A DNA stretch of 64,000 nt from Elusimicrobia bacterium RIFOXYD2_FULL_34_15. Its GTDB lineage: Bacteria; Elusimicrobiota; UBA8919. The translations under genes and the position numbers were made by a program. Where the stretch lies: contig MGVS01000097.1 in the NCBI GenBank assembly GCA_001800605.1, positions 12,694-76,693 on the forward strand, written 5' to 3'. Of this stretch, positions 4,400 to 61,108 are shown in pieces. The notes under the pieces are model-generated. The model did no database searches. It was not told the DNA's origin and was given only the letters and a program-made list of their open reading frames with translations. How positions within the stretch are numbered: position 1 is the stretch's first letter; every line of letters starts with the position of its first letter.

Positions 4400-4427
4400 A
4401 AACAAAATACTACTTACTGCACTATTC

Positions 4428-4545
4428 TCTTCTTTCATCCGGACTTTACCGTCGGTATCTGAGTTTCACAGATTCGATCCCATATTTTTTATGGGACTCG
4501 CGGACTTTAACCGCCGATTGGGAATTTCACCCAACCCCGAAGAGT
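4428..4545 (-). promoter_or_regulatory. FMN riboswitch (RFN element) aptamer controlling the rib operon
   Basis: Minus strand reads cttcggggttgGGTGAAATTCCCaatCGGCGGTtAAAGTCCGCGAGtcccat...atgggaTCgAATCtGTGAAAcTCaGAtaCCGACGGTaAAAGTCCGGATGaAAGAaGAGA. This matches the conserved RFN core blocks. A TATAAT lies about 12 nt upstream. Confidence 0.85.
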
Positions 4546-4576
4546 TTTAACTACGATTATAACGATTTTAAAATCT

Positions 4577-4725: not shown

Positions 4726-5019
4726 ATGAAAAAACTTGAAAAAATAGAAAATATTATAAAAGAGCACAAAACAGAACTAAAAAAAGATTTTAATATTAAA
4801 CGTATTGGTATATTTGGTTCTTATATTAGAGGTGAGCAAAGTAATAAAAGCGACCTTGATGTTCTTGTTGAATTTAAAGAACCTATTAGTTTGTTAAAAC
4901 AAGCCGCTTTATGGAATTATCTATCTGAACTACTAAGAATTAAAATTGACCTTGTATGTAAGAGAAAAATTAGGCCCGAATTGAAACATAATATATTGCG
5001 AGAGGTTGTATATTTATGA
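4726..5019 (+). CDS. MntA-like nucleotidyltransferase antitoxin (type VII TA)
   Basis: 97 aa. Minimal nucleotidyltransferase fold motif GIFGSYIRGEQSNKSDLDVLVEF. 4-nt overlap with the downstream HEPN gene. Confidence 0.8.
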   Translation: MKKLEKIENIIKEHKTELKKDFNIKRIGIFGSYIRGEQSNKSDLDVLVEFKEPISLLKQAALWNYLSELLRIKIDLVCKRKIRPELKHNILREVVYL

Positions 5020-5360
5020 AAAGAAACACACTACTTTATTTTAAAGATATATTAGATAATATGAAAAAAGCAGAAACTTTTCTTAAAGATGTTAATTATC
5101 AAGATTTTGCCAAAGATGAAGAAAAAAATTATGCTATTGTAAGATGTATAGAAATAATAGGTGAAGCTTCAAAAAATATTCCCAAATTCATTATTGAAAA
5201 ATATCCTGATGTACCCTGGAGGGATATAATCAGAACAAGAGATTTAATATCTCACCATTATGATATAGTTGATTCGCGTGAAATTTGGGATATAGTAAAA
5301 AAAGATATTCCGAGTATAAAACTTTTTATTCAAAAAGCATATAAAGATCTAAAAAAGTAA
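5016..5360 (+). CDS. HepT-like HEPN (DUF86) RNase toxin
   Basis: 114 aa. HEPN Rx4-6H motif RTRDLISHH. Classic MNT-HEPN pairing. These are the only plus-strand genes in the window. Confidence 0.8.
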   Translation: MKRNTLLYFKDILDNMKKAETFLKDVNYQDFAKDEEKNYAIVRCIEIIGEASKNIPKFIIEKYPDVPWRDIIRTRDLISHHYDIVDSREIWDIVKKDIPSIKLFIQKAYKDLKK

Positions 5361-5458: not shown

Positions 5459-5629
5459 TCAAATTCTTTCAATACCTTCCGTACGCTTGTACAAATACGA
5501 CTGCATTCTACTACTTGGAGTAAACGAATAATATGCGTTGTAATCCACGCACCCGCACGTAGAAAATATCGTGATAGAGCAGCTGTACCAGTTCTTAAAA
5601 CATTTTACTGCCTTTTCAACTTTATTCAT
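5459..5629 (-). CDS. Cys-rich 56-aa micro-ORF (MNKVEKAVKCFKNWYSCSITIFSTCGCVDYNAYYSFTPSSRMQSYLYKRTEGIERI), not in the ORF track
   Basis: Its ATG overlaps the TGA of the upstream 927-aa gene in an ATGA arrangement, suggesting translational coupling. Four Cys in 26 residues. No homology is recognisable by eye. Confidence 0.3.
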   Translation of the reverse strand: MNKVEKAVKCFKNWYSCSITIFSTCGCVDYNAYYSFTPSSRMQSYLYKRTEGIERI

Positions 5630-14813: not shown

Positions 14814-14912
14814 ATTATTAAATATTTAATAAATACTCTTATCAACCACAGTTATTTTTTCTTTTTCCTTCAATGCGCTCGTTACTCATTACCCATTACC
14901 CGTTACTTCTTA

Positions 14913-17213: not shown

Positions 17214-20200
17214 TCAAGGTTTTTCTTCCTGGTTTGACTCTCGGGGAGCTTCCTTAGATGGTTCAGTTCCAAATCTCCAGAATTTTTCAAAGAAGAAGCT
17301 TCTGTTTCTTTGGCCATCTAACTCTTGAGTAGTTTTAAACATCACGCCATTTTTTAGACGGTAAGAAAGTTCGATATCATGCCTCAGTGAAAGTTTGTTT
17401 TCAAATTCATCGAATTTAACGCCATATCCTGCCGAAAAACCGCTTGAAAAAGATTTACCGAATTGAAGTTTTGTACCTTTGTACAAATCCAGTATTGTAG
17501 GTTGTGTACCTCCTGCTAAAGGTGTAGCCGGTGCCTCCCTTTTTATCGCAAATTTATCTATAAAACCGGTTCTTTTAAAGAGCGATTTGACAAATGGTGT
17601 TGTTAAAAGCGTATCTACCGCTTTTGACACCTCTTCAGCTGAAAACGGTTGTTTCTGTTTTGTATCCGCTAATCCCAATGCCGCCTGTGCGGCTGACTGT
17701 TCTTCTTCCTGAGGATTGGTCTTTGAAGAAAATCTCGGTTTGACATTTTCCAGGGGACCTCTATCTAGAGTCAAAACAATAGTATCAGGTATATATTCTG
17801 TAACCATCTGGTGTGTTGCTAGATCCTCCCTTCTTTTTTCTATTTCCGTTTCTGATTCGGCTATTCCTGATAGATACAAATTACTATTTTCCGCTTCAAA
17901 AATAGCTTCTCTAATCGTAAAACTTCTACCGATATAATTGATATCTCCTCTTGTTGATTCAACTTTTCCTGTAACAAATGGTGATGATCCTTTACCGTGA
18001 AGAAGGAGCTCTCCTTTAGTTTCAGCAGAAGCAAAATCGTTTTCATACCAGCAATTCTTGCCGGATATAATTTTAAAATTCCAGCTTGCATTATTAAGAA
18101 AATCCCAGCTGCCTTCACTGCTATCTACACCAGGATATGTAAATCTTGCATCACTCAGCTTCATATAACCGCTGATATTCCAAGAATCAGAAGTTCCTGC
18201 AAATGTTATATCACAACCAACTTTTGCCCTGGAAGGATTAGAGAAAGAAGCATCCGGCACACCCGGGATAATCTTTCCGATACCGCCGGATTTTATTTGT
18301 AAATCATTAATCACTACTCCAATATTTCCGTTCGGGGTTACTACATGTAAATCAAAATCGCCGATATTAAAACCATCAACTACGGAAAGGTAACCGCTTA
18401 TTACGATAGGTTCTTTATCAATCAAAGCACTAACTTCATTCAATTCTATCCTATTACCTGAAAATTTTAATTTACATTTAACATCATTTAACTTTTTAAA
18501 AATATCTTTCATAACAACTTCTTCGGCAGTTGCATTTAATTCGCCGGAAATATCGGGTTTCTTTATATTTCCTCTTACATCTATAGACATTGAAAATTTT
18601 CCCGTTGCTTTTTTTACTACTTTAGAAAAGGAAGTTAATATCGACATATCCCCATCTTTAATTTTTAAAGATATATCTATCGGCCTATCGGATAGCTTTT
18701 TCTTCATTTCAGCGGTCAGCGGCAGAGGTAAAGTACCCTCTCCTTCGACCGAATAAACATTTTTCTGCGATATTTTTAAATGTTTCAATTCAAGAATACT
18801 TTCATTTATTTCAAAAAATATGGATGCTGTATCAAAATCGATATTTTCTAATTCGCCGTTAGAAGAATTTACCATGCAGTTTAGAATCGGATTTTCTCTG
18901 GTACCCGAAATACTTATATTAAAATTCGTGTTGCCTGCTGCTTCGATTTTTGCACCTAAAATGTTAAGCAAATTGCCAAGCGGAATGTTATTACCTTCGG
19001 ACACAATATCAAAAGTATCATTTTTTAATAAACCATTAACAAAAAATATTTTTTTTCCTACCTCAAATATCGAAACATTATCAATTTTTAATTCTGAAAG
19101 TTTTGAAATATCCATACGGCCTACAACTTGTGTTGTTTTTCCCATTTCGGGTATAAAACTTAGAATACCCCCAGAATATTCAACGTGATATCTCCTGTCT
19201 TTTAACTGATATTGGTTAACCCATAAACCAGAAGTTGAGATATCTGCTTTTATTGAATTATCCCAACTGCCTTCTATACTAAGACCACCAAAAAGTATCA
19301 CACCAGGTATTTTAACATTTCTTAATTCCATAACTATTTTAAAAATTGATTCTTTAGAAATATTTATATTTGATTCAGGAAGAATTTTAATCTGGGTTTC
19401 ATCCCACTTAATATTACCCTTTGAAAAAACTACCCGTTTATTCTTATATGTGAATCTGCCGTCCAAAGAATCCACTAATTTTTCTTTTATATGAATATTT
19501 GTTCCGGAAAAACTAACTAAAATCTCCGGATTTTTTAAAGGACCTGTTATGTTAAATTCTACATCTTTAAATTTTCCTGATACCGGAAAAGTAGCTCCGT
19601 ATAATGTATATATTGAATCCGTTTTTAAATCGTCTGCAGATATATTTAATCCTGTAAATTCTCCTTTTCCCAAATCTGCAGTACCTGAAATTGCTATTAC
19701 AGACTTATCCATAATTAATTTTGTATTTTCCACTTTTAGTATCTTTTTATTTACTGATATTTTCCCTGTTCCATGAGAATCCAAGCCATAAATATTGCCT
19801 TCGTATCTATAATTTATCGAAATCAAAGGATTATTTATATCCCCCCTGACTGACATTTCACCTATTAACCTTCCGTCTATTTTTTTATAAATCTCTTCTG
19901 CATTTATTAAAAATTTTATATTTGAAGAAACATATCTTGAATCCAAAAAATAACTAAAATTACCCCTGATTTTGTCTCCCCATATTATTTCTTTAAGATC
20001 TATTTTTTTACCGTCATAAGTTCCTGTTGTTAAAAACTTTTCCCTGACATTATCAACCGATAAATTAGGCGAAGTAATCTTATAATTTATTGTGTTTTCC
20101 GTTTTTTTCCCGTACAAGCTCAAATCTCCGTTTACTATTTTCTTTTGAATTTCCAAATCATTAAGCTTCAATGATAGATTGAAATTATTTTTTTCAATTT

Positions 20201-22149: not shown

Positions 22150-22215
22150 AGAGTTATCGAATTTACTATTACTCATTACCCATTACCCAGCCTGTCCCGA
22201 CTCATCGGGATTACT
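22150..22215. repeat. RPE-like palindromic element ...cattacccattACCCAGCCTGTCCCGActcaTCGGGATTACtCGTTAC...
   Basis: 38-nt core shared with 36385-36440 and, in inverse orientation, with 49218-49274 inside the cca gene. Confidence 0.8.
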
Positions 22216-24676
22216 CGTTACTGACTTTTGTTTCAGAATATATAGTATTAAATATAAGTTTTTTTAACTCAAACGAATAATCTACATTTATTTTAGTGCT
22301 CTTTGGCATTTTTTTAACAAGAAGTTCTTCCGCAAGCCCATCCTCAAGATATTTTGAAATTACCCTGTTTAACGGACGTGCACCATATTGCGAGTCAAAA
22401 CCCTTTTCAAGCAGAAAATTCTTAGCGGGTTCTGTTAATTCTATTACAAAACCCTGTTGTTTGGTCTTTTTTAGTACCCTTTCGAGCATTATATCCAGAA
22501 TTTTCCGCATATGTTCTTTTTCTAACGGATGGAAAACAATAGTATCATCCAAGCGGTTCAAAAATTCAGGATTAAGCGTTTTCTTTAATTCTTCTATCAC
22601 GGTTTCTTTCATTGATAAAAAATCTTTCTGTGTATTACTATCGGGCTGTGTCATAAAACCAAGCGATTTACCTTTAGATATCTGGCGTGCACCAATATTA
22701 GAAGTCATCAAAATTATTGTATTTTTAAAATCAACTTTATGACCAAGGTTATCAGTTAAAATACCGGTATCCATTATCTGTAATAGAATATTCAGCACAT
22801 CAGGGTGCGCCTTTTCTATCTCATCCAAAAGAACCACAGAATAAGGTTTACGCCTTACCTGTTCGGTAAGCTGACCGCCTTCATCATAACCCACGTAACC
22901 GGGAGGTGCGCCTATAAGATGTGAAACAGAAAATTTTTCCATATATTCAGACATATCAAAACGCACCAACGCATCTTCGTGACCGAACATAAATTCTGCG
23001 AGTGCCCTTGCAAGTTCAGTTTTTCCAACACCAGTTGGTCCCAGAAAAATAAAAGCGCCTATAGGTCTTCTCGGATCTTTTAGACCGGTTCTGGTCCGTC
23101 TTATTGCATGAGAAATAGAAACAACCGCCTCATCCTGGCCTATAATCCTTCTATGTAATTCATCTTCCATTTTTAATAATCTTTCTGATTCTTTCTCGGT
23201 CAACTTCATAAGTGGGATATTTGTCCATTTAGAAACTATATTCGCAACATCCTCACCATTAATTGTTGGTTTTATATGGCTTAAACCCTGTCTCCACTTT
23301 TTTCTTTCTTCAGCTAATACTCTTCTAAGTTCTTCTTCTTTATCTCTCAATTTGGCTGCTTTTTCAAATTCCTGTGAATTAACGGATTTGTCTTTGTCGA
23401 CAACAATATTTTCAATTTCTATTTCCTTGTCTTTAAGTTCCTGCGGTAACGAAGTAAGATTAAGATGAGCTCTGCTTCCTGCTTCATCGACTAAATCAAT
23501 AGCTTTATCCGGTAAATATCTCTCGGTTATATACCTATCCGACAGTTCAACCGCTGCTGAAATAGCTTCATCGGTATATTTTACTTTATGATGTGACTCA
23601 TATTTTTCTTTTAGACCGTGCAGAATTTTTATTGTTTCTTCTACCGACGGCGGATTAACCGTTATCGGCTGAAATCTTCTTTCAAGTGCAGCATCGTGCT
23701 CAATATACTTCCTATATTCCGAGAATGTTGTCGCCCCGATGCATTGTAGTTCACCCCGTGCTAACGGCGGTTTTAACATATTCGATGCATCGATAGCACC
23801 CTCTGCAGCACCGGCACCGATTACCGTGTGTAATTCATCGATAAAAATAATTATGCTATTTTTCGACTGTCTTATTTCGTCAATAATATTTTTTAACCGT
23901 TGCTCAAATTCACCCCTGTATTTTGTACCCGCTACCACACCTGACAAATCAAGAGTAACTATTCTTTTGTTCAAAAGAATTTCCTGGGTATCCTGGTTGA
24001 CAATTCTCTGGGCCAAACCTTCTACAATAGCTGTCTTACCAACACCAGGATCTCCCACTAAAACAGGATTATTTTTTGTCCGTCTTGATAACACTTGAAT
24101 CAATCTGTCGATTTCATTATCTCTGCCGATAACAGGATCGAGTTTGCCCTCTCTCGCCATTTCAGTTAAATCCCTACCAAATTCATCAAGGGTTGGCGTC
24201 TTTGACTTATGTTTATGCTGTGGTAACGGTGGTTGTGATGTTTCTCCCATAAGATTAATAATCTCTTCTTTTACAATGTCATATGAAAGTCCGAAATTTT
24301 CCAAAACAACGGTTGTTTTCAATTCGGTATTTTTCAAAAGTCCTAAAAGAATATGCTCCGTTCCGACATAACTGTGCGCCATTTTCTGTGCTTCTTCTAT
24401 TGAATATTCCAATACTTTTCTTGCTTTCGGAGTTAGAGGTAATTCGCCGTATTGAAGTAAATTATCTCCCAGTGGCAGGGTTTTTTCTATTTCTATTCTT
24501 ATACGCGAAGTATGTATTCCAAGATTTGCTATTATCGTAGCTGCTACACCATCGTCAAGATCAAGCAATCCCAATAATATATGTTCGGGAGTAATAAAAT
24601 CGTGGTTTAATCTCTTCGCCTCTTCCTGCGCAAGTCGTATTACCCTTTGTGCTCTTTCTGTAAATCTATTATACAT
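22211..24676 (-). CDS. clpC: ATP-dependent Clp protease ATP-binding subunit ClpC
   Basis: 821 aa. Two Clp_N repeats, a UVR motif and two AAA+ modules. Confidence 0.9.
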   Translation of the reverse strand: MYNRFTERAQRVIRLAQEEAKRLNHDFITPEHILLGLLDLDDGVAATIIANLGIHTSRIRIEIEKTLPLGDNLLQYGELPLTPKARKVLEYSIEEAQKMAHSYVGTEHILLGLLKNTELKTTVVLENFGLSYDIVKEEIINLMGETSQPPLPQHKHKSKTPTLDEFGRDLTEMAREGKLDPVIGRDNEIDRLIQVLSRRTKNNPVLVGDPGVGKTAIVEGLAQRIVNQDTQEILLNKRIVTLDLSGVVAGTKYRGEFEQRLKNIIDEIRQSKNSIIIFIDELHTVIGAGAAEGAIDASNMLKPPLARGELQCIGATTFSEYRKYIEHDAALERRFQPITVNPPSVEETIKILHGLKEKYESHHKVKYTDEAISAAVELSDRYITERYLPDKAIDLVDEAGSRAHLNLTSLPQELKDKEIEIENIVVDKDKSVNSQEFEKAAKLRDKEEELRRVLAEERKKWRQGLSHIKPTINGEDVANIVSKWTNIPLMKLTEKESERLLKMEDELHRRIIGQDEAVVSISHAIRRTRTGLKDPRRPIGAFIFLGPTGVGKTELARALAEFMFGHEDALVRFDMSEYMEKFSVSHLIGAPPGYVGYDEGGQLTEQVRRKPYSVVLLDEIEKAHPDVLNILLQIMDTGILTDNLGHKVDFKNTIILMTSNIGARQISKGKSLGFMTQPDSNTQKDFLSMKETVIEELKKTLNPEFLNRLDDTIVFHPLEKEHMRKILDIMLERVLKKTKQQGFVIELTEPAKNFLLEKGFDSQYGARPLNRVISKYLEDGLAEELLVKKMPKSTKINVDYSFELKKLIFNTIYSETKVSNE

Positions 24677-30950: not shown

Positions 30951-30990
30951 TGTATTCTGTGTACTGTGTTCTGTTTTTTAACTGTATCCT
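30951..30990. repeat. Tandem heptamer-type repeats (CTGTATT/CTGTGTA/CTGTGTT)
   Basis: Same family as 53729-53765, 54799-54842 and 58478-58507. Confidence 0.6.
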
Positions 30991-33048: not shown

Positions 33049-33174
33049 AACATTTGGCAAAGCTTACGCTTTGCTGCTACATATTTCAGAACTCCCTCAT
33101 TTCTATGAACTACGAACTCTTTATTTGCATTTTCCACCTCCCTCTCTCTCGAAGAGACCCGTTTATACGGGACT

Positions 33175-33345
33175 AATAACAAATAGGTTTCCTGACTTAG
33201 GTTTTTTGGAATTTCACCTTCCCAGTTCGCCATAGCGACCAGTGGCATTTAAAATTCCCTGCTCCAAATCATTGGAGCATCACCATTACAGTAGCGGGAC
33301 TGTTCCCGAATTTTATCCTTAGACTCCGCTCAGGATAAGCACGGG
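33175..33345 (-). promoter_or_regulatory. Cobalamin (AdoCbl) riboswitch aptamer
   Basis: Minus strand reads ...AAttcGGGAAcaGTCCCGCtACTGTaAtgg...GCCACTGGtcgctatggcgaaCTGGGAAGGTGAAATTCC...AAGTCAGGAaACCTatt. These are the conserved cobalamin-riboswitch core blocks (the CCCGC.ACTGT block, GCCACTG, GGGAAGG, and a B12 box at 33183-33198). Confidence 0.72.
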
Positions 33346-33370
33346 ATTCTCTATTTTGTTAATTTTTATA

Positions 33371-34096
33371 TCACTTTATATTTAACAATATTAACACTAA
33401 CACTTCTGAAATTTCGTTTATCGCACCTAAAGTATCACCGGTAATACCGTTTATTTTCTTTTTAACATATTTTGTAAATATATATGAGAATACTGAAATA
33501 AACAGAAATATTATAATACCTTTAAATTGAAAAACAAAGGTAGTTATTAAAAATGTAATTATTCCTGATATAACAAAATCTTTTTTTGAAATATTACTTA
33601 AAAAGTAATTTCCCAAACCGGTTTCCTTTGCCGGTTTTGATATTCCCATTGATAAAACCATAGCCCATCTTCCAAGAACCGGAAACAAAATTAAAGATGA
33701 ATTGAACAAAGCAGTATCAATATTATTTAATAAAACAAATTTTGAAAGTATTACCAATGCAATACCAATAACTCCCATAGTACCGATATGACTATCATTC
33801 ATAACTTCTAGTATTTCATCTTTATTTTTTCCGGCATATAAACCGTCAAGCGAATCTGCTAGTCCGTCTAAATGCAAACCACCGTTAATTATTATTGTTA
33901 CGGTAATAATCAATAAATCAACTACTATTTTATAAAACACAAATGAGCAACCAAATTTAATTAGAACAAGAATTCCGCCGATAAAAAGTCCGACAACCGG
34001 GAAAAAAGGCAATATATGTTTTATCCCCTGCCTGTATTTTTTTGGCACAGGTATTATTGTCAGAAAACTAATAGCTGAAAATAAATAATTAATCAT
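33371..34096 (-). CDS. cobS: Adenosylcobinamide-GDP ribazoletransferase (cobalamin synthase)
   Basis: 241 aa polytopic membrane protein. Begins MINYLFSAISFLTIIPVP with the conserved DGLAD...GDxxG motif. Confidence 0.88.
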   Translation of the reverse strand: MINYLFSAISFLTIIPVPKKYRQGIKHILPFFPVVGLFIGGILVLIKFGCSFVFYKIVVDLLIITVTIIINGGLHLDGLADSLDGLYAGKNKDEILEVMNDSHIGTMGVIGIALVILSKFVLLNNIDTALFNSSLILFPVLGRWAMVLSMGISKPAKETGLGNYFLSNISKKDFVISGIITFLITTFVFQFKGIIIFLFISVFSYIFTKYVKKKINGITGDTLGAINEISEVLVLILLNIK

Positions 34097-34139
34097 AAAT
34101 TTGCTTACCTTTTACCCGTTACCCATTACTCGTTACCCG

Positions 34140-35207
34140 TTACTGTTTTGTACTTACTCCTGCACTCTCAAATGTCGCCATCTCATCTAAAATTTTAAGC
34201 GAAACATCTATTAAATTCATTGCTAATGCTGAACCCGTTCCTTCACCTAACCGCATACCTAAATTTAAAAGCGGTTTTAAATTTAAATATTCAAGCATAA
34301 TTCTATGCCCTGGCTCTTTTGAACTATGCGCTGCAATCCAATACTGTTTAGCTAATGGTGAAATTTTGTCAGCTATCAAAGCGGCTGCTCCGGATATAAA
34401 GCCATCGATAACAACAGGTATTTTGTAGCTTGCACCTGCAATCATTATACCTGCTAAACCGCCGATTTCATATCCGCCTATCTTTGATAAAATATCGATT
34501 CCGTCATTAAAATCCGGTTTATTTTTTTCTATACCTCTTTTTATAACATCAATTTTATTTTGTAATGCTTTATCATCAATACCTGTTCCCCTGCCGGTTA
34601 CTTTTTCAGGTTCAATATTACAAATCACCGATGCTATGGCTGCAGATGGCGTTGTATTTCCTATGCCCATATCACCCGTTCCAATCAAATCTATTCCGCC
34701 ATTTTTAACTTCTTCTTCAACAAGTTCAATACCTATCTCAATTGACTTAATCGCTTCTTCTCTTGTCATTGCAGGTCCTTTAGTAAAATTCTTCGTCCCA
34801 AAACCAATTTTTTTAACTTTTAACTTTTCACTTTTAACTTGCAGTTCTTCTCCTACTCCCATATCCACAACAACTACTTTTGCTCCAACATGCCTTGCAA
34901 GAACATTTACTCCAGCACCGCCGTTTATAAAATTGTAAACCATCTGGGGTGTTACTTCTTTTGGATATGCGGAAACCCCTTCCTCAACAACGCCGTGGTC
35001 CCCTGCAAGCGTAAAAATAGTTTTATTTTTCAATGAGGGCTTATCTTTTCCTATAATTGCAACTATTTGTTTTGCAACATCTTCGAGTTGTCCCAAAGAA
35101 CCAAGCGGTTTAGTTAAACTATCAAGCCGTTTTTGAGTTTTATCTAAAAGTACTTTATCTAGCGGTTTAGTATTCCTAATAATTTCTTCTATTTTCTTAC
35201 TTGTCAT
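34140..35207 (-). CDS. cobT: Nicotinate-nucleotide--dimethylbenzimidazole phosphoribosyltransferase
   Basis: 355 aa. CobT fold with GEGTG and GGAA motifs. Confidence 0.88.
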   Translation of the reverse strand: MTSKKIEEIIRNTKPLDKVLLDKTQKRLDSLTKPLGSLGQLEDVAKQIVAIIGKDKPSLKNKTIFTLAGDHGVVEEGVSAYPKEVTPQMVYNFINGGAGVNVLARHVGAKVVVVDMGVGEELQVKSEKLKVKKIGFGTKNFTKGPAMTREEAIKSIEIGIELVEEEVKNGGIDLIGTGDMGIGNTTPSAAIASVICNIEPEKVTGRGTGIDDKALQNKIDVIKRGIEKNKPDFNDGIDILSKIGGYEIGGLAGIMIAGASYKIPVVIDGFISGAAALIADKISPLAKQYWIAAHSSKEPGHRIMLEYLNLKPLLNLGMRLGEGTGSALAMNLIDVSLKILDEMATFESAGVSTKQ

Positions 35208-35881: not shown

Positions 35882-36402
35882 TTTAGTCTCCTTTTTATAC
35901 CTGAAATAAAAAAGTAAAATTCGTTTGAATCCTTAGCAAGTATCTGATTTACCCTGCCGATTATATCCCTGAAATCTCTTCCCAATTTATATGGCGGCAC
36001 AACCCCCATCCCCACTTCATTTGAAACTAAAATAACTTTTCCTTTAATTTTCCGCAGTTTTTTAATTAGATTTTTAATATTTTCTATTATCTTATCTTCA
36101 GTATATTTCTTAAACATCCAATTTGAAACTAAGAAAGTTACACAATCAACAATAACACAATCCGCTTTTTCAAACGATTTTAAATGTTTTATAATATCCT
36201 CTGTCTCTTCAATCGTTTTCCAATGTTTTGGCCTTGATTCTTTATGAACTAAAATTCTCTTATTCATTTCTCTATCCGTTATCTTACCGGCAGTTGCAAT
36301 AAAAACAACTTCTTTGCATTTTTCGGCAAGTTCCAAAGCAAAAGTACTCTTCCCTGACCTCACCCCGCCCGATATAAATATAATTTTTCCCATTTTACCC
36401 AT
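35878..36402 (-). CDS. cobU: Adenosylcobinamide kinase / adenosylcobinamide-phosphate guanylyltransferase
   Basis: About 171 aa. P-loop GGVRSGKS. The first ATG overlaps the repeat, so the likely start is the second Met at 36393. Confidence 0.85.
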   Translation of the reverse strand: MGKMGKIIFISGGVRSGKSTFALELAEKCKEVVFIATAGKITDREMNKRILVHKESRPKHWKTIEETEDIIKHLKSFEKADCVIVDCVTFLVSNWMFKKYTEDKIIENIKNLIKKLRKIKGKVILVSNEVGMGVVPPYKLGRDFRDIIGRVNQILAKDSNEFYFFISGIKRRLK

Positions 36403-36440
36403 TACCCAGCCTGTCCCGATGCATCGGGATTACCCGTTAC
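36385..36440. repeat. RPE-like palindromic element, second copy (ttacccattACCCAGCCTGTCCCGAtgcaTCGGGATTACcCGTTAC)
   Basis: See 22150-22215 and 49218-49274. Confidence 0.8.
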
Positions 36441-37224
36441 TTGTTTTATCCCATTGCGGCACCGATAAAATATGCGGTTTACCCGAAACAGGGTTTTTAT
36501 TTACAACAACAACCGTTTTATAAACATATTCTATATTCTGATAAGTCATAACCTCTTCAGGATTGCCCTCTTTATAAATAGCACCGTTTCTCAAAAGTAA
36601 AATCCTGTCGCAATATTCGCTGGCAAGATTCAAATCATGCATAACTATAATAACAGTAACTTTTTTTTCTATATTTAACCTTTTAATAATATCCAAAATT
36701 TCTATCTGATGGCTTATATCCAAATGTGAAGTCGGTTCATCAAGCAATATAAACTTTGATTGCTGGCAAAGTGCACGCGCAATTACAACCCTCTGTTTTT
36801 CTCCGGAAGAAAGTTCATTTATATATCTTTCGGAAAGTCCTTCAATTTCCAGAAGCTTCAAACTTTCTTCAGCAATTTTAAAACCCTCTTCTTCTTCACT
36901 TAAAAATTGCTTCTGGTACGGATATCTTCCCATCAGAACAATTTCTTTTACAGTAAACGCAAATGTCGTATCAACCTCTTCCGGAACAAAAGAAATATTT
37001 CTAGCCCTTTCTTTGGGTTTCATTTTATAAATATCTTTTTCATCCAGTAAAACTTCACCATTTTGAGGATGATAAAATCCGGAAATTGCTCTTAATAACG
37101 TTGATTTTCCGCTTCCGTTCGGACCTATAATACCAACAAATTCATAGTCGGAAACAGTTAAATTTACATCATTAACAGCAACAAAATTATCGTATTTAAC
37201 TACCAAATCATTAACTTTTAACAT
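36430..37224 (-). CDS. btuD: ABC transporter ATP-binding protein, FecE/BtuD type
   Basis: 264 aa. Walker A GPNGSGKST and LSSGEKQRV signature. The C-terminus reads into the repeat element. Confidence 0.85.
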   Translation of the reverse strand: MLKVNDLVVKYDNFVAVNDVNLTVSDYEFVGIIGPNGSGKSTLLRAISGFYHPQNGEVLLDEKDIYKMKPKERARNISFVPEEVDTTFAFTVKEIVLMGRYPYQKQFLSEEEEGFKIAEESLKLLEIEGLSERYINELSSGEKQRVVIARALCQQSKFILLDEPTSHLDISHQIEILDIIKRLNIEKKVTVIIVMHDLNLASEYCDRILLLRNGAIYKEGNPEEVMTYQNIEYVYKTVVVVNKNPVSGKPHILSVPQWDKTSNG

Positions 37225-39784: not shown

Positions 39785-39800
39785 AGTTTGCTCCCTTATT

Positions 39801-39958
39801 AACCCGCCACTGATGCGCCTCCGCCAGTTGGCGGATGGCGGACCGTTGCATGCCCACCTACGCTTTCTTGTCCGCCAAAGTTTCAGTGGCGGAAGTGGCG
39901 GAAGTTGTGGGGCGGGTTAACCCGCCACTGATGCGTTGGCGGGTTAATTTTTGGCAAA
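39801..39958. repeat. Cluster of GC-rich palindromic elements (cccgccactgatgcg..., ccgccaaagtttcagtggcggaagtggcgg, cccgccactgatgcgttggcggg)
   Basis: Multiple CCGCC...GGCGG hairpins. Shares a family with 40177-40231 and 1323-1397. Confidence 0.7.
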
Positions 39959-39960
39959 GC

Positions 39961-40135
39961 CAAAAATTAAAAAAACCTAGCTCTGAGAAGAGTTAGGCTA
40001 ACTAAACTTTCTCCCCTCGGAGTTTTCGTAACTGATAGACCGGGCTTTACCGTTGCGGGGCAGCTTCCGAATTCCCATTTATACTGAGCAACGTCGAACG
40101 TATCAATGGGTCACGGAATTCCTTCAATTACAAAT
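39961..40135 (-). ncRNA. Candidate structured leader RNA, possibly a divergent cobalamin-type riboswitch, ending in an intrinsic terminator, upstream of the cobO-btuFCD-cobU-cobT-cobS operon
   Basis: Minus strand reads ttgaaGGaattCCgtg...tatAAatGGGAAttcGGaaGctgCCCCGCaACgGTaAAGcccgg... This partly resembles the GGGAA...CCCGC.ACTGTAA core of cobalamin riboswitches. It ends in CCTAaCTCTtctcAGAGcTAGG plus TTTTTTTAATTTTTT (39961-39996). No clear B12 box. Confidence 0.35.
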
Positions 40136-40176
40136 TATTTTAAAAACGATTAAAACTGATTAAAAGAACTGATTAT

Positions 40177-40231
40177 TCACCCGCCAAAGATTCCTTGTCC
40201 GCCGATGTTTTAGTGGCGGAAGTGGTGGGCA
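40177..40231. repeat. GC-rich palindromic element (ccgccaaagattccttgtccgccgatgttttagtggcggaagtggtggg)
   Basis: Family member, see 39801-39958. Confidence 0.65.
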
Positions 40232-40282
40232 TAGATTATTATATAAAAATCAAAAAACAAGTCAAGTGAAAAAAATTTATAC

Positions 40283-40340
40283 TGCCGCCTTTGGCGAGCC
40301 TCGCCCCCTTGGGGCGGGAGCCAAACCAAGTCGAAGTATC
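40283..40340. repeat. Direct repeat copy 1 (ctgccgcctttggcgagcctcgcccccttggggcgggagcc...agtcgaagtatc)
   Basis: About 85% identical to 45623-45685. Together they bracket the PHP-PhoH2-RNase J-GIY-YIG block. Confidence 0.75.
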
Positions 40341-46942: not shown

Positions 46943-47013
46943 GAGCGGGTGATGGGAATCGAACCCACGTTTCAAGCTTGGGAAGCTTGCATACTACCAT
47001 TGTACTACACCCG
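46943..47013 (-). tRNA. tRNA-Gly (anticodon CCC)
   Basis: Minus strand: GCGGGTGTAGTACAATGGTAGTATGCAAGCTTCCCAAGCTTGAAACGTGGGTTCGATTCCCATCACCCGCT. 7-bp acceptor stem, anticodon loop TTCCCAA, T-loop GGTTCGATTCC. Confidence 0.85.
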
Positions 47014-47073
47014 CAGAAATTCAATTAAAAATTAAAAATTAGAAATTCAAAATTGTGGTTGTTTTTTATTTAA

Positions 47074-48062: not shown

Positions 48063-48125
48063 ACAATTCTCCGCCCCTAAGGGGCGAGACCCTGACTACC
48101 GTTAGGCAGGCTCGCCCATCGGGCG
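48063..48125. repeat. Direct repeat A (ccgcccctaaggggcgagaccctgactaccgttaggcaggctcgcccatcgggcgggc)
   Basis: Differs by 2-3 nt from 49617-49682. The two copies bracket the cca gene precisely. Confidence 0.8.
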
Positions 48126-48167
48126 GGCTCAAAAACACTATCGCACTATTTTTCTAATTATATAAAA

Positions 48168-49610
48168 TTATTTGGTTTTTACAATAGTTTTTAGAAATTT
48201 TATTGCTTCTTCCCTTGTTTTTACTTCTTTAGTTACTTGCGATTCTTCAAGTTTTTTAAGTAATTGTCCGACTTCAGGACCTTGTTCAATTTTTAATATT
48301 TTCATTATTTCATTACCATTTAAAAGTTTTACAGGAAGTATCTTTTCTTTTTTATAAAAATACTTATTCAGCAATTTATTGCCGACTATTCTGTGAAGTG
48401 TCCGTATATTACTTGGTGGATACGTATAAGCATCGCAGATTGATAAAACAATCTGATCTATACCATCTTCACCTAAATCCTTAAAAAATCTCCATACAGC
48501 TTTATCGGTTACTTCTTTTGCACTTGTAAGGTTTCCTAAACGCATATGGTTCTGGATAACTTTTTTTATATATTTTATTTCGTCATTTGAAAACCTTAAC
48601 CTTTTCCCTATTTTATCAATCATTTTGCTTCCCACATCTTCATGCCCGAAAAATCTCAATCTATCACCAATTTTTTCGGCAGATCCGGGTTTTCCTATAT
48701 CGTGTAAAAGCACCGCGTATTTCAAAATTGTTTTCCTTTTTACTGTTCTTGAAATATTACCGTCAAGATGCATCATTATTTTTTTATTGAATCTTGGAAA
48801 AATGTTTTTAAAATTATTTTTATAAAACTTCTCGAGCACTTTCAATGAATCAAAACAATGCCCCAGAAGCCCCATTTTGGGGTAATAACACCTTGCTGTA
48901 TGCCTGGTCGGAATTAACTCCGGAAATATATAATCCAATAATTTCGAATTATGCATTTTCAATATAATGGAATGACTATCTGATAATCCCATTATTAGAT
49001 TTAATTCGTAACTTATTCTTTCTACAGATACTTTTTTTATATATTTCGCATATTTTTTTATAAATTTTTCTGTTTTTGGTTCAATTTTAAAATTTAATTG
49101 CCCGGCAAACCTGTACGCTCTTAAAACTCTTAACGGATCATCAACAAAGTTTTTTTCTTCAATACATCTTATAACCTTGTTCTTTATATCAACTCGTCCA
49201 TCATAAGGATCAATAAGATCGGTAACGGGTAACGCGTAATCCCGAGAAGTCGGGACAGGCTGGGTAATGGGTATCGCAATGGCATTGATAGTAAAATCAC
49301 GTCTTGTTAAATCTTCGATAATATTTTTGCCCTGCATTTTTGAGAAATCGAAGGTTTTGCCATTAATAATCACACGGTAAATTTTGTTGAAGTCGTCTAA
49401 AATTATGAATTTTCCTTTTACTTTTTCGGCAAATGTTTGTGCAACTTTCTGCGTATTGCCGTCAGTAACAAAATCCATATCTTCCGAGATTTTATTAAAA
49501 TACAAATCCCTGATATAGCCCCCGACAATCCAGATATTTTCTTTAGTTTTTAAGTATTTTAATATATCAATATTATTCATAAATAACCTTGCACTATCAC
49601 CCCACCCCAC
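48168..49610 (-). CDS. cca: CCA-adding enzyme / tRNA nucleotidyltransferase (Pol-beta head plus HD domain) carrying an in-frame repeat-element insertion
   Basis: 480 aa. GGYIRD...D.D, the RRDFTINAIA motif and the HD domain LLHDIGK. An extra 19-aa loop (IPITQPVPTSRDYALPVTD) lies between INAIA and LIDPYDG. Confidence 0.85.
   Translation of the reverse strand: MGWGDSARLFMNNIDILKYLKTKENIWIVGGYIRDLYFNKISEDMDFVTDGNTQKVAQTFAEKVKGKFIILDDFNKIYRVIINGKTFDFSKMQGKNIIEDLTRRDFTINAIAIPITQPVPTSRDYALPVTDLIDPYDGRVDIKNKVIRCIEEKNFVDDPLRVLRAYRFAGQLNFKIEPKTEKFIKKYAKYIKKVSVERISYELNLIMGLSDSHSIILKMHNSKLLDYIFPELIPTRHTARCYYPKMGLLGHCFDSLKVLEKFYKNNFKNIFPRFNKKIMMHLDGNISRTVKRKTILKYAVLLHDIGKPGSAEKIGDRLRFFGHEDVGSKMIDKIGKRLRFSNDEIKYIKKVIQNHMRLGNLTSAKEVTDKAVWRFFKDLGEDGIDQIVLSICDAYTYPPSNIRTLHRIVGNKLLNKYFYKKEKILPVKLLNGNEIMKILKIEQGPEVGQLLKKLEESQVTKEVKTREEAIKFLKTIVKTK
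49218..49274. repeat. RPE-like palindromic element inserted in frame within cca (inverse orientation)
   Basis: The reverse complement, atacccattACCCAGCCTGTCCCGActtcTCGGGATTACgCGTTACccgttacc, matches the intergenic copies at 22150-22215 and 36385-36440. It encodes residues 113-131 of Cca. Confidence 0.85.
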
Positions 49611-49616
49611 AATCGC

Positions 49617-49682
49617 ACAATCTTCCGCCCCAAAGGGGCGAGACCCTGACTACCGTTAGGCAGGCTCGCCCATAGGGCGGGC
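49617..49682. repeat. Direct repeat B (ccgccccaaaggggcgagaccctgactaccgttaggcaggctcgcccatagggcgggc)
   Basis: See 48063-48125. Confidence 0.8.
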
Positions 49683-53720: not shown

Positions 53721-53728
53721 TTCTTTAA

Positions 53729-53765
53729 CTGTATCCTGTATCCTGTATCCTGTATTCTGTGTACT
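53729..53765. repeat. Tandem 7-mer repeats (CTGTATC x3, then CTGTATT, CTGTGTA) at the oppB-oppC junction
   Basis: On the coding strand this reads GGATACAG x3, ending 9 nt before the oppC ATG. Confidence 0.7.
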
Positions 53766-54798: not shown

Positions 54799-54842
54799 CT
54801 GTATGCTGTTTTCTGTATTCTGTATCCTGTATCCTGTGTACT
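54799..54842. repeat. Tandem 7-mer repeats (CTGTATG/CTGTTTT/CTGTATT/CTGTATC x2/CTGTGTA) at the oppA-oppB junction, with a partial inverse copy at 54758-54777
   Basis: Forms a potential long hairpin in the oppA-oppB intercistronic region. Confidence 0.65.
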
Positions 54843-57188: not shown

Positions 57189-58517
57189 TTATTTTAATAT
57201 GAGCGTTGTTGTTTTCTGAGGGTTATAGAATTTTTCAGCAGCTGTTTTTATATCGGCAATTGTAACTGCATCGATATCATCCAAATATTTACTATCGTAT
57301 TCATAACCCTTCCCCATAACTTCCCAAAAGCCGTTCCACCATCCCTGCCTTTGAATTGTCCTATGGTCCATTAAAAAGGTTCCTTTTAAATATACCTTTG
57401 CATTTTTAAGTTCTTCTTCTGAAACCTCTGAAAACTTTTTCATCTCTTCATCAAACGCTTTTTCTACTATTTCAAGATTTTCCTTTGACATTCCTGCATA
57501 AAAAACAAAATCGCTTATTTCTTTTCTTGTCGGATAAAACGAATCGGCTTCATACACCAATCCATTTTGCTCACGCAAAGCATTAAATAATCTCGAACCC
57601 ATTCCACCGCCAACCACGGTATTTATAACTTTAAAAACCACATATTCATTTTGGCTGATATCCGGTGCAAGAAAACCGGTAAAAATATATGCCTGATGGA
57701 ATTTACTTTGAGATATTTCTCTAACCGGTTTATTTTGAGTGATTTTATAGGTTACAGTTCCTAGAAACACATCTTCTGCACCTATAATCTTTATATTTTT
57801 GAAATATTTTTCGACAATTTGTTTTGCTTTATCAAAATTAATATCCCCATTAATACTTAATATCATATTCTCCGGTTTAAAATTTTTTCTATAAATATCC
57901 GATATCTGAGAAATGGTGAGCGATGAAACACTGGATTCGTAACCACTGATAGGCCTATGATACGGATGTTTTTTAAAAATCAACTCATTAAATTGGTCAT
58001 AGGAAATAGAAAAAATATGATCTATCTTTGATTTAATACCGGCGATTGTCCTTACTTTTTCTTTTTCAAACTCATTTTCAGGAAACGTCGGATTATTTAC
58101 AATATCAGCAAAAATATCAAAAGCTGTATCAATATTTTCAGAAGGTACAATTAGCGAAACTTCGGAATAATTATTTGAACAACCCGCTGAAATTGTTGCA
58201 CCGATAGATTCTGTTTCTTCTGCTATCTTTTCCGAATCACGATTGACAGTACCTTTTATCAATATCTGAGTCATCAAACTTGTAACACCTGCTTCTTCGT
58301 CTTTTTCGTTTATGTTACCGCCTTTTATAAACAGATTTACGCTTACTAATCCTACTTTCTCTTTTTCCTGATGAATAAATGTAAATCCATTCTCAAACTG
58401 TACTCTCTTGGTTTCGCAATATAAATTACCAACAGCAAACACTAAAAGGCTTATAGCAACTAAAAACCTTAAAACCTGCGTACTGTGTACTGTATACTGT
58501 ATACTGTTTTTATTCAT
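57189..58517 (-). CDS. M16-family peptidase, non-catalytic partner (no HxxEH motif)
   Basis: 442 aa. Insulinase-like fold. The ATG overlaps the upstream gene's TGA in an ATGA arrangement. The N-terminal coding region contains the 7-mer tandem repeat at 58478-58507. Confidence 0.75.
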   Translation of the reverse strand: MNKNSIQYTVHSTQVLRFLVAISLLVFAVGNLYCETKRVQFENGFTFIHQEKEKVGLVSVNLFIKGGNINEKDEEAGVTSLMTQILIKGTVNRDSEKIAEETESIGATISAGCSNNYSEVSLIVPSENIDTAFDIFADIVNNPTFPENEFEKEKVRTIAGIKSKIDHIFSISYDQFNELIFKKHPYHRPISGYESSVSSLTISQISDIYRKNFKPENMILSINGDINFDKAKQIVEKYFKNIKIIGAEDVFLGTVTYKITQNKPVREISQSKFHQAYIFTGFLAPDISQNEYVVFKVINTVVGGGMGSRLFNALREQNGLVYEADSFYPTRKEISDFVFYAGMSKENLEIVEKAFDEEMKKFSEVSEEELKNAKVYLKGTFLMDHRTIQRQGWWNGFWEVMGKGYEYDSKYLDDIDAVTIADIKTAAEKFYNPQKTTTLILK

Positions 58518-60364: not shown

Positions 60365-60550
60365 AGGTCTCGCCAACGCTTTAGTGGTGGACCGAAGGTT
60401 CGCTTATCCCCCTGCGAACCGTAGGCCTCGCCAATGGTTTAGTGGCGGGCTCATTTAAATAATCTGTGTAATCTTGCACTCGAAGTTCGTACCCACTGGA
60501 ACGAACAAGACTGCAATTCCGATTTATCGGAATAATACCTCTTCATCTGC
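60365..60550. repeat. GC-rich palindromic element (60365-60455) followed by a composite element homologous to 660-845: ATCTGTGTAATC at 60462-60473, then TTCCGAT-TT-ATCGGAA and ATAATACCTCTT
   Basis: The inverted repeat covaries with the copy at 815-832 (TCCCGAT-TT-ATCGGGA). Confidence 0.7.
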
Positions 60551-60554
60551 TTCA

Positions 60555-60794
60555 TCATATTGCGGTAGTTACCAATGTTTCGGTAGTAGCAACACCAGAA
60601 TTGGCACGTATTTTATGTACAACTAATGACGTCAATTCCTGAATACTGCTTGCTTCAACATCTATTACTAAATCCCATCTGCCCAATACTGCACTTATGT
60701 GAGTAATACCTCTGATGCTTTTCAACTTATTAAGCGTTTGTTTTTCTTTACCTACAACAAGACGAACAAGTACAAGACCGGAAGCCATCGCCAT
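60555..60794 (-). CDS. Stand-alone RAM-domain protein (Lrp/AsnC C-terminal ligand-binding domain)
   Basis: About 79 aa. GLVLVRLVVGKE...AVLGRWDLVIDVEA...VATTETLVT fits the AsnC_trans_reg fold. GGGAGG lies 8 nt upstream of the ATG at 60794. Confidence 0.65.
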   Translation of the reverse strand: MAMASGLVLVRLVVGKEKQTLNKLKSIRGITHISAVLGRWDLVIDVEASSIQELTSLVVHKIRANSGVATTETLVTTAI

Positions 60795-60960
60795 TATTCT
60801 CACCTCCCAAATATTCACTCAGGATCTCGTTTCGTCAGCACACGGTCCCCTGGTGGGGCCGTCCCCACTCGTTCCGCTGAATGCGTAAGCGGAACTCCGT
60901 GAGGGCATTCCTCAACGAATCCCTCGTTCACCATTATAAGTCAAAATCTAAATTTCTGCT
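60795..60960 (-). ncRNA. Candidate structured 5' leader (unclassified possible riboswitch) of the RAM-domain gene
   Basis: Minus strand reads TATAATggtgaacgagggattcgttgagg...GTTCCGCttacgcattcaGCGGAAC...GTGGGGacggCCCCAC...GGGAGGtgagaataATG. About 55% GC with several perfect hairpins between a -10-like box and the SD. Confidence 0.2.
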
Positions 60961-61003
60961 TCGCTCACCATTAAAGACTAACCTCTCTGCCTTTCTCCCT
61001 TTT

Positions 61004-61108
61004 CCACCACTAAGACTTTGGCGGACCCGCCTATGGTTCAGTGGCGGGCTACCCTTTTACCTTTTACTCGTTACTCCCGCCATAGGCGGGCAAGCATTAC
61101 CCATTACT
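61004..61108. repeat. GC-rich palindromic elements (ccaccactaagactttggcggacccgcctatggttcagtggcggg ... cccgccataggcgggc) with ttactcgttac / ttacccattac tails
   Basis: Family of 10520-10592, plus the ttacYcRttac module. Confidence 0.7.

Follow-up and report, generated by a model that had tools for sequence, protein, structure and literature searches.

The Nostocaceae are said to harbor small dispersed repeats (SDRs; sequence families SDR1–8) of 21–27 nt, which Elhai et al. reportedly described in 2008 (Genome Res 18:1484) as mobile, on the evidence of filled and empty sites with short specific targets, and tandem heptanucleotide repeats (short tandemly repeated repetitive sequences, STRR) reportedly described by Mazel et al. 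in 1990. In-frame colonization of genes by palindromic repeats is already known from the Rickettsia palindromic elements (RPEs) and from repetitive extragenic palindromes (REPs) in open reading frames (ORFs). RPEs measure about 100–150 bp, encode tens of residues and are, to our knowledge, confined to Rickettsia. They have been summarized as selfish DNA lying in frame in protein-coding genes (PMC3733652). REPs and REP doublets forming hairpins (REPINs) are palindromes tagged with GTAG or CGTC and linked to REP-associated tyrosine transposases (RAYTs), and different REPs have been reported at about one site of Xanthomonas recB (PMC3733652, PMC3116915). Dispersed heptamers of Xanthomonas (GGGAATC) and Nostoc (GGGGAYT) are found for the most part no farther than 50 bp from a gene end, in spacers of co-directional genes; some overlap stop codons, and they are rare on the coding strand in ORFs (PMC4692102). 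Here we analyze a 64,000-nt stretch of DNA from Elusimicrobia bacterium RIFOXYD2_FULL_34_15 (contig MGVS01000097.1; the whole stretch is called the window below), in which the gene cca, encoding a class II tRNA nucleotidyltransferase, contains a repetitive segment in frame. This segment is probably a copy of a two-layered dispersed repeat, a 21-nt hairpin within a tract of heptamers, that is translated in frame at a loop where the uptake of such modules has recurred.

Composition of the repeat module in cca

A 28-nt core, CCAGCCTGTCCCGA-N4-TCGGGATTAC, occurs three times in the window, once inverted and in frame in cca. The corresponding pattern, CCAGCCTGTCCCGANNNNTCGGGATTAC, matches exactly at 22187-22214 (+), 36406-36433 (+) and 49236-49263 (-), within the three sites reported in the preliminary description of this DNA, and was found in none of 100 dinucleotide-preserving shuffles of the window, with 0 matches expected by chance. 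A lack of real similarity between the intragenic and the intergenic copies would have spoken against a shared repeat; in the inverted repeats that the cca copy forms with the two others, the arms are 93% identical over 45 nt in one case and 86% identical over 50 nt in the other. The conserved block of this alignment, TTACCCATTACCCAGCCTGTCCCGA-nnnn-TCGGGATTACnCGTTAC, is about 47 nt long, and similarity ends after it. Read in frame, the cca copy gives IPITQPVPTSRDYALPVTD(LI), with motif B (RRDFTINAIA) before it and motif C (DPYDG; LIDPYDG with the two preceding residues) after it, in an intact ORF, again as described earlier. The insert is presumably translated, and its predicted tryptic peptide is DFTINAIAIPITQPVPTSR.

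The two other copies (A and B; Table) both lie between co-directional genes. The earlier statement that they are intergenic is correct to that extent, but both overlap gene ends: the terminal TTAC of copy A provides the TAA stop of the gene at 22211-24676 and copy B provides the TAA stop of the ATPase gene, while their heptamers (22211-22222 and 36430-36441) encode the last residues of the upstream genes (...SNE* and ...SNG*). Within the window, one of the three copies of the hairpin family is thus located inside a coding sequence (CDS). GC-rich hairpins with a 6-bp stem are mostly intergenic in the window (26/32, in 10% of the sequence); five of the 32 lie in CDSs, and the only CDS-located hairpin that matches a repeat family found here is that of cca. 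Rfam contains no family that matches the repeats, its matches in the window being two riboswitches and one tRNA.

The loop-coding stretch of cca can be resolved into two layers. Six tandem heptamers of the form TTACNNN, 42 nt in total, fill the loop between motifs B and C, and a GC-rich hairpin of 21 nt stands between CCA and TTAC of one heptamer, into which it would have been inserted. The stem is a perfect 6 bp (TCCCGA/TCGGGA), or 7 bp in the RNA fold. When the window copies are stacked with those from metagenomes, most have the common unit TTAC-YCA-GCCTGTCCCGA-N4-TCGGGA-TTAC, and the right flank diverges directly after TTAC. Excision of the 21 nt restores a whole heptamer (CCA/TTAC in the cca copy, YCA/TTAC in the unit); because a complete heptamer is left behind, the 63 nt of the loop break down into 42 nt of heptamers and a further 21 nt. 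What was inserted is most likely the hairpin of 21 nt, GCCTGTCCCGA-N4-TCGGGA, inside one TTACCCR heptamer, rather than the 57-nt element with flanking cccattac units proposed before: those flanks belong to a heptamer tract, and orthologs have such a tract at this position as well, with its phase unchanged. The other copies of the hairpin family also sit in intergenic heptamer tracts, and two further tracts in the window are free of hairpins (Table). The GC content is 0.51 in the loop-coding stretch, compared to 0.31 in the cca gene and about 33% in the window.

Oriented as in cca, the module has no stop codon in any of the three frames. When it is reversed, as in the intergenic copies, its GGGTAA units place TAA in every frame. 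The total length of the insert is a multiple of three. Such a length and an open orientation are two filters that an insert in this gene has to pass in order to survive; a position in a tolerant coil would be a third.

Table. Features of the window, with coordinates, and contents of the cca loops in syntenic orthologs
Feature	Position	Strand	Description and basis
cca, class II tRNA nucleotidyltransferase with C-terminal HD domain	48168..49580	-	ORF, Pfam, 100% identity to P0001; 470 aa from MNNIDIL
Loop-coding stretch, 63 nt	49212..49274	-	Six heptamers and one 21-nt hairpin between motifs B and C; encodes IPITQPVPTSRDYALPVTDLI
Two 5' heptamers	49261..49274	-	ATACCCA, TTACCCA (gene sense); sequence reading
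21-nt hairpin, presumed inserted element	49240..49260	-	GCCTGTCCCGA-cttc-TCGGGA; exact core match
Three 3' heptamers	49219..49239	-	TTACGCG, TTACCCG, TTACCGA; sequence reading; Tandem Repeats Finder (TRF) period 7, unit GGTAACG, at 49221-49239
TCTTATT	49212-49218	-	Codes for the conserved (L/I)I ahead of DP; sequence reading
Copy A of the module	22176..22222	+	Hairpin 22190-22210; between two minus-strand genes; core match and repeat finder
Copy B of the module	36395..36441	+	Hairpin 36409-36429; 27-nt spacer between ABC-transporter ATPase gene and cobU; core match and repeat finder
Hairpin-free heptamers	14878..14907	+	CGTTACT, CATTACC, CATTACC, CGTTACT; intergenic spacer; repeat finder and TRF
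Hairpin-free heptamers	34103..34144	+	TTACCCG and TTACCCA types; fills 43-nt spacer between two genes; repeat finder and TRF
66-nt composite of three hairpins of other families, upstream of cca	49617..49682	+	94% identical to downstream copy; direct copies
Second 66-nt triple-hairpin composite, on the downstream side of cca	48063..48128	+	Repeat finder
tRNA-Gly(CCC)	46943..47014	-	No encoded 3' CCA, discriminator base then CAAATT; Rfam and acceptor-stem reading; only tRNA gene in window
FMN riboswitch	4423-4548	-	Rfam
Cobalamin riboswitch	33166-33393	-	Rfam
L001 cca loop			GATACAG-type units and hairpin of CCGCC...GGCGGGCAAG family, abundant in window
L002 cca loop			CAGATTA/CAGATTG units (42-nt TTAC/TTGC-type tract) and 24-nt hairpin, TTG[..]CAGA
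L004 cca loop			TTACAAA units with CCCGCCgcGGCGGG
L005 cca loop			TTACCAC TCACAAC TTACAAC TTACAAC TTACAAA TATAATA; pure 42-nt tract
L006 cca loop			L005-type tract and 24 nt (TTCGCCtgcGGCGAACCTACTTGG) inside one unit, TTA[..]CCAC
L018 cca loop			(GTGGGAA)x4, four perfect units
L019 cca loop			TTATCAT TTATAAC TTACGAT TTACGAC TTACGAA CGTTATA; pure 42-nt tract
L020 cca loop			(GATTGGA)x3

Host protein and loops of its orthologs

We compared the DNA of ten syntenic orthologs of cca, together with one more distant homolog (L021; 40% amino acid identity, other neighbors). Where the flanks were recovered, the gene order was ABC ATPase and then cca, followed in five loci by a GAF/PAS gene. Presence or absence of a 57-nt segment among orthologs, for which the preliminary description had suggested looking, was not the pattern obtained. 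The window's segment is carried by none of the ten, eight have tandem heptamers of their own, and five of these eight also have a GC-rich hairpin; both the heptamer units and the hairpins vary among the eight (Table). The two remaining loops, of P0011 (L007; 30 nt) and of the basal P0017 (L023; 39 nt), are plain and without heptamers. For L018, L020 and L019 the heptamers had been predicted from the proteins beforehand, and the DNA agreed. The TTAC-type loops of the window, L002, L005, L006 and L019 are equal in codon phase and in length (six units, 42 nt), and within cca itself an empty site (L005) can be set against a filled one (L006), which has a 24-nt insert. An identical loop, which in unrelated lineages would argue against a repeat insertion, was absent from every other protein among the 120 best matches. 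We also considered homology of the PTSR motif of P0015 with that of P0001, which is ruled out as the underlying hairpin DNAs are unrelated.

An artifact, in the form of an assembly chimera at the repeat or a pseudogene with an untranslated loop, is scarcely credible in the light of these data. The source is a metagenome-assembled genome (MAG), and assemblers can be misled by repeats; however, the module of about 47 nt is by our estimate below typical read length and is bordered by unique gene sequence at either end, the 470 codons form an uninterrupted frame in which no motif is missing, and an identical protein is found on five contigs of several sources. In addition, ten independent assemblies of relatives have repeat-derived loops at this site.

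Several loop repeats recur elsewhere in their own genomes. The L006 loop hairpin is found again in its own locus at L006:2215-2245 and 6040-6070, and the L004 loop heptamer TTACAAA at L004:1992 and 19156. The 6040-6070 copy (TTCGCCaccgGCGAACCTACATGG) falls inside the range of the L006 ABC ATPase gene and may be another in-frame copy. In L004, four perfect TTACAAA units lie at 1989-2025, at the N-terminus of a solute-binding-protein gene, and a degenerate TTACAAA tract lies at 19140-19200 inside a cobT-like gene. A second heptamer family, CTGTATC/CTGTGTA, fills short spacers between co-directional genes of the window (53727-53762, 54804-54842, 58476-58510 and 30957-30977), and the cca loop of L001 uses this unit in the opposite orientation.

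The rate at which the loop changes was judged against the 300 nt that flank it. The flanks of P0006 and P0005 are 92% identical, and their loops consist of (TTACAAC)n and (GTGGGAA)4, respectively; P0006 and P0011 have 89% identical flanks, and P0011 has no repeat; and P0001 and P0002, with 84% identical flanks, differ in both heptamers and hairpin. In a neighbor-joining tree of the proteins with the loop removed, the loop types are scattered and do not track the tree. Because flanks of up to 92% identity enclose unrelated loops, the site turns over fast, and to judge from these comparisons the cca loop is a recurrent hot spot for repeat modules.

The same comparisons bear on the possibility that the heptamers are a microsatellite grown in situ by slippage, with the hairpin copied from an intergenic module by short-patch gene conversion through shared heptamers and no dedicated mobile element involved. 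We regard this as unlikely. In-place homogenization by slippage could explain the small differences among TTAC-type units, which deviate by 1–3 bases as in arrays homogenized in place and which share phase and 42-nt length, and conversion would find a substrate in the 14–21 nt of heptamer sequence that flank the hairpin on either side and are common to the cca copy and copies A and B. However, slippage leaves unexplained both the non-TTAC units at the site, given that L018 (GTGGGAA) and L020 (GATTGGA) have flanks 83–92% identical to those of TTAC-type loops, and the agreement of loop units with tracts found elsewhere in their genomes (window, L004), for which evolution in situ alone does not account.

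The more distant homolog L021 (GC 0.47) has a different element in the same loop, a CGTC-tagged REP doublet at 6120-6240 that starts CGTC-ATTCCGGCGAAAGCCGGAAT. Its fold has a 21-bp stem and a further inner helix (-59.5 kcal/mol, z -7.5) and is the only strongly structured case. The cca of this locus, a distant one of the Elusimicrobia (P0022), additionally carries (CGTTAGT)n in frame at 5851-5884, in the loop of motif A.

The product of cca is 100% identical to P0001, a protein of Elusimicrobia bacterium RIFOXYD2_FULL_34_15, a groundwater bacterium; in the ORF list its start lies further 5', at a GTG at 49610. Pfam assigned PF01743, PF12627, PF01966 and PF13735 (PolyA_pol head, PolyA_pol_RNAbd, HD and tRNA_NucTran2_2). 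The features of class II nucleotidyltransferases, namely motifs A (GGxxRD...DxD), B (RRDxxxN), C (DxxxGxxD) and D (DDPLRxLRAxRF), are all present, as supported by Pfam, an alignment with invariant columns, and sequence and fold matches in the PDB. The fold matches were 3WFR, 3WFO (the best), 3H37 and 1MIV. The closest solved relatives by both sequence and fold are 3WFO-3WFS, which we take to be the CC-adding enzyme of Aquifex aeolicus, followed by bacterial CCA-adding enzymes, and the cca product may add CCA or only CC. The single tRNA gene of the window has no encoded CCA, which suggests, from this one case, that the activity is needed and that cca is probably indispensable in this host.

An AlphaFold2 model built on 28 homologs (mean predicted local distance difference test score, pLDDT, of 91; predicted template modeling score, pTM, of 0.86) shows the insert as a coil (residues 105-122; the loop residues in question are about 103-121), with a pLDDT of 80 in block 101-110 and of 57 in block 111-120, compared to 92–96 in neighboring blocks. 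The head-domain model suggested earlier thus yielded a low-confidence coil between well-predicted strands, which would be solvent-exposed at the protein surface. In the enzyme, motif A is followed by a beta-turn, a flexible loop, motif B, motif C, D and E, and motif C acts as a flexible hinge that coordinates domain movements (PMC7730189). By this order, the insert site is outside the beta-turn and the flexible loop and directly before motif C. Loop length, counted up to the D of DPxxG, could be parsed in 103 of the 120 best homologs, among which it ranges from 6 to 39 aa with a mode of 9 aa (38/103). The approximately six residues attributed to homologs before hold for distant homologs only; the loop has 10–28 aa in the 17 closest orthologs, being long across the whole clade, and 17 aa in the entry taken for the A. 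aeolicus enzyme. The position clearly appears to tolerate changes in length, and both the model and this variation point to a tolerant coil outside the catalytic elements.

We find it quite improbable that the insert is functional, as a head-domain extension for tRNA or partner binding, as an mRNA hairpin that tunes cca translation, or as a heptamer frameshift switch resembling a contingency locus. The loop lies directly before the motif C hinge (PMC7730189) and is long in the whole clade, and since 7 nt do not make up whole codons, adding or removing a single unit would inactivate the gene; L018 has four perfect units. Nevertheless, the protein sequences of the loops show no relation among close relatives and have no conserved peptide, the peptide simply results from translating a repeat that is otherwise intergenic, and the model shows no defined structure for the insert. 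An off-switch is implausible for a gene that is probably indispensable, and the imperfect units of the window limit slippage. The 19–21 encoded residues would most likely be a neutral or slightly costly passenger rather than a functional addition.

Filled and empty sites and a candidate target

A metagenome scan for the hairpin returned nine stretches, none overlapping the window, and a scan of a genome collection returned a single match, in Anditalea andensis (L008). One of the metagenome loci (L017, on another contig) contains the hairpin of the cca loop within an RHS-like ORF, as an insertion of exactly 21 nt in frame (NHLGN-PEVSGQA-VLTTITDRK). Homologous RHS sites are uninterrupted (NHLGNV...) in 88 of 89 cases. 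The exception, P0133 (L022), is interrupted at the codon boundary used in L017, but by another hairpin of 21 nt, A-CCCGCC-tgcct-GGCGGG-AAG. On the element strand, both inserts are located just 5' of ATTACC or GTTGCC (RTTRCC), which is the same relation as that of the window hairpins to their heptamers. These insertions occurred without a heptamer tract, and the 6-nt RTTRCC is too short for gene conversion, which speaks further against slippage combined with conversion.

A further filled site was found upstream of cca, where a 59-nt triple hairpin interrupts an octamer tract (CGATTGTG)n that is intact in L001; the L001 spacer downstream of cca is of unrelated sequence. The RHS inserts 5' of RTTRCC, the upstream octamer site and the relatives of loop repeats within their own genomes together suggest that insertion is sequence-targeted and adjoins RTTRC. 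The Leu-Pro codons TTA-CCN that open the loop in many orthologs may supply or seed this motif. The duplication at the L017 and L022 insertions is at most 1–3 ambiguous bases. A 7-nt target-site duplication was considered as the origin of the heptamer tracts and rejected, as both insertions are without one.

The identical 25-nt hairpin core occurs in L008 (1462-1486; Anditalea andensis, Bacteroidota) and in L017, and the nearest homologs of the L017 RHS-like gene are named Bacteroidota. The Bacteroidota occurrences would be either chance or members of a cross-phylum family. In another stretch, L013, heptamers and the hairpin of the cca loop at 5876-5980 belong to the open frame and directly precede a lipoprotein signal peptide (..SRFFGITLLFFIGC); either this element contributes codons to the signal peptide, or translation may in fact begin farther downstream.

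A number of observations weigh against an inserted mobile hairpin at cca. An empty-site relative of the window copy is missing, as the nearest ortholog (76% amino acid identity; L001) has another module. The hairpin does not fold clearly better than shuffled sequences (z of -0.9 in cca and of -2.2 and -1.2 in the two other window copies), and with z values of only -0.9 to -2.2 its detection by structure alone is ruled out. The L017 and L008 matches might be due to chance, as 21 specified bases in about a terabase would give approximately 0.3–1 match, and more for palindromes; since L017 is an exact 21-nt in-frame insertion, chance is unlikely in its case. The tolerance of the loop is read from a predicted model and from length variation. 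Finally, we found no transposase, a point in favor of slippage and conversion: Pfam identified ordinary cellular genes and one toxin-antitoxin pair among ten ORFs (eight of 97–174 aa), and a HUH...Y motif was not detected in six frames of all fetched loci with a crude regular expression, which is a weak test. Because no candidate enzyme was found, mobility is deduced only from filled and empty sites.

On balance, we favor the two-layer repeat with recurrent uptake. In the proposed sequence of events, hairpins would insert immediately 5' of RTTRCC, the targets in this low-GC genome being provided by the loop-opening TTA-CCN codons and by any heptamer tract grown from them. In essence, the hairpin appears to behave as claimed, like selfish mobile DNA comparable to RPEs or to REPs in ORFs. 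A broader and doubtful possibility is that families of ultra-small hairpins (21–24 nt) in these Elusimicrobia and in some organisms with Bacteroidota-like RHS genes integrate sequence-specifically beside RTTRC, the core of the heptamers of the genome itself, and form with the heptamer tracts one system that spreads and homogenizes across loci and repeatedly rewrites the cca loop faster than the neighboring codons diverge. If true, this would be the first SDR-like system outside the cyanobacteria, and its activity would be recorded naturally in the conserved cca loop, which can be aligned.

The cca locus bears on the question of how such small repeats and heptamer tracts move and why one genome shares one unit. 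It offers a conserved, syntenic and alignable site at which the process would have acted many times in close relatives, and the filled/empty pairs define a unit of 21–24 nt and RTTRC as a candidate target. It also provides an example of presumably foreign sequence tolerated by the catalytic head of a nucleotidyltransferase just before motif C. Repeat-derived loops of this kind inflate apparent protein divergence and can mislead the annotation and alignment of MAG proteins.

Other features of the window were noted in passing. The only clear plus-strand genes are a nucleotidyltransferase/HepT-like toxin-antitoxin pair at 4726-5360 (+), the rest being on the minus strand, and GC skew is negative across the whole window. 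A 102-nt tandem repeat (5741-6073; 3.3 copies, 75% matches) lies inside a 927-aa ORF (5626-8409). Two long spacers, 60377-61096 (720 nt) and 39785-40338 (554 nt), have a GC content of about 0.46, are rich in hairpins, and contain no ORF of at least 90 aa and no Rfam match.

Comparison with known systems

The insertion sequence (IS) IS608, of the IS200/IS605 family, inserts 3' of TTAC by means of subterminal hairpins. The cca element resembles this family, as a mechanistic analogy only, in being a hairpin-bearing, single-strand-like element with a short TTAC-containing target. In contrast to IS200/IS605, the insert is followed at its 3' end by the constant flank RTTRC, a search of the sequence gave no TnpA-like gene, and the unit is far smaller than a pair of IS ends. 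Miniature inverted-repeat transposable elements (MITEs) have lengths of 70–300 bp, terminal inverted repeats of 15–30 bp and a target-site duplication (PMC3733652). A MITE is ruled out here, as the unit is 21–47 nt with a single 6–7-bp stem and no duplication beyond 1–3 ambiguous bases. With the Xanthomonas and Nostoc heptamers, the tracts described here share the presence of one 7-nt unit at many loci of a genome. Those heptamers, however, are G-rich and discussed as quadruplex formers, and neither embedded hairpins nor a conserved in-frame enzyme site are described for them (PMC4692102).

Like REPs, the repeats are short GC-rich hairpins found mostly between co-directional genes, sometimes as a source of stop codons and sometimes in frame in ORFs. 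REPs are palindromes of 20–40 bp, mostly extragenic and between unidirectional or convergent genes; the repeats of the window agree with this in that copies A and B lie between co-directional genes and most GC-rich hairpins are intergenic, and the L021 doublet in the same cca loop is CGTC-tagged. The window element itself differs from REPs in having GTAA (GTAA-TCCCGA...TCGGGA-CAGGC) instead of GTAG or CGTC, and in being a single hairpin in tandem heptamers rather than an inverted doublet. No RAYT was seen in the window: within the 64 kb of the genome and the scattered loci covered, none of eight ORFs of 97–174 aa is a transposase, and no fetched locus has a HUH...Y motif.

RPEs are similar in being palindromic dispersed repeats that occur both between genes and in frame in conserved genes left apparently intact, with tRNA-processing enzymes among the host genes in both cases. 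They differ, in a comparison by description rather than by sequence alignment, in that the element here is a 21-nt hairpin in a heptamer tract (block of about 47 nt) with a host in the Elusimicrobia. The preliminary view of an RPE-style selfish element in a surface loop of an essential protein is supported as regards the dispersed palindrome, its frame, the coil in the model and the probably essential gene. The cca element is not a member of an RPE family, being far shorter, in a different phylum and of no demonstrated sequence relation.

SDRs are also summarized in PMC5861425. Likened by description, the two systems agree in unit size (about 21–27 nt), in filled and empty sites (21 nt in L017 and L022 compared to 88 uninterrupted sites; 24 nt in L006 compared to L005), in short specific insertion sites and in genomes rich in dispersed heptamers. 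The phylum and the sequences differ, the host here being not cyanobacterial. By analogy, the cca element appears closest to the SDRs of the Nostocaceae in its size, in the evidence for mobility and in its association with heptamers.

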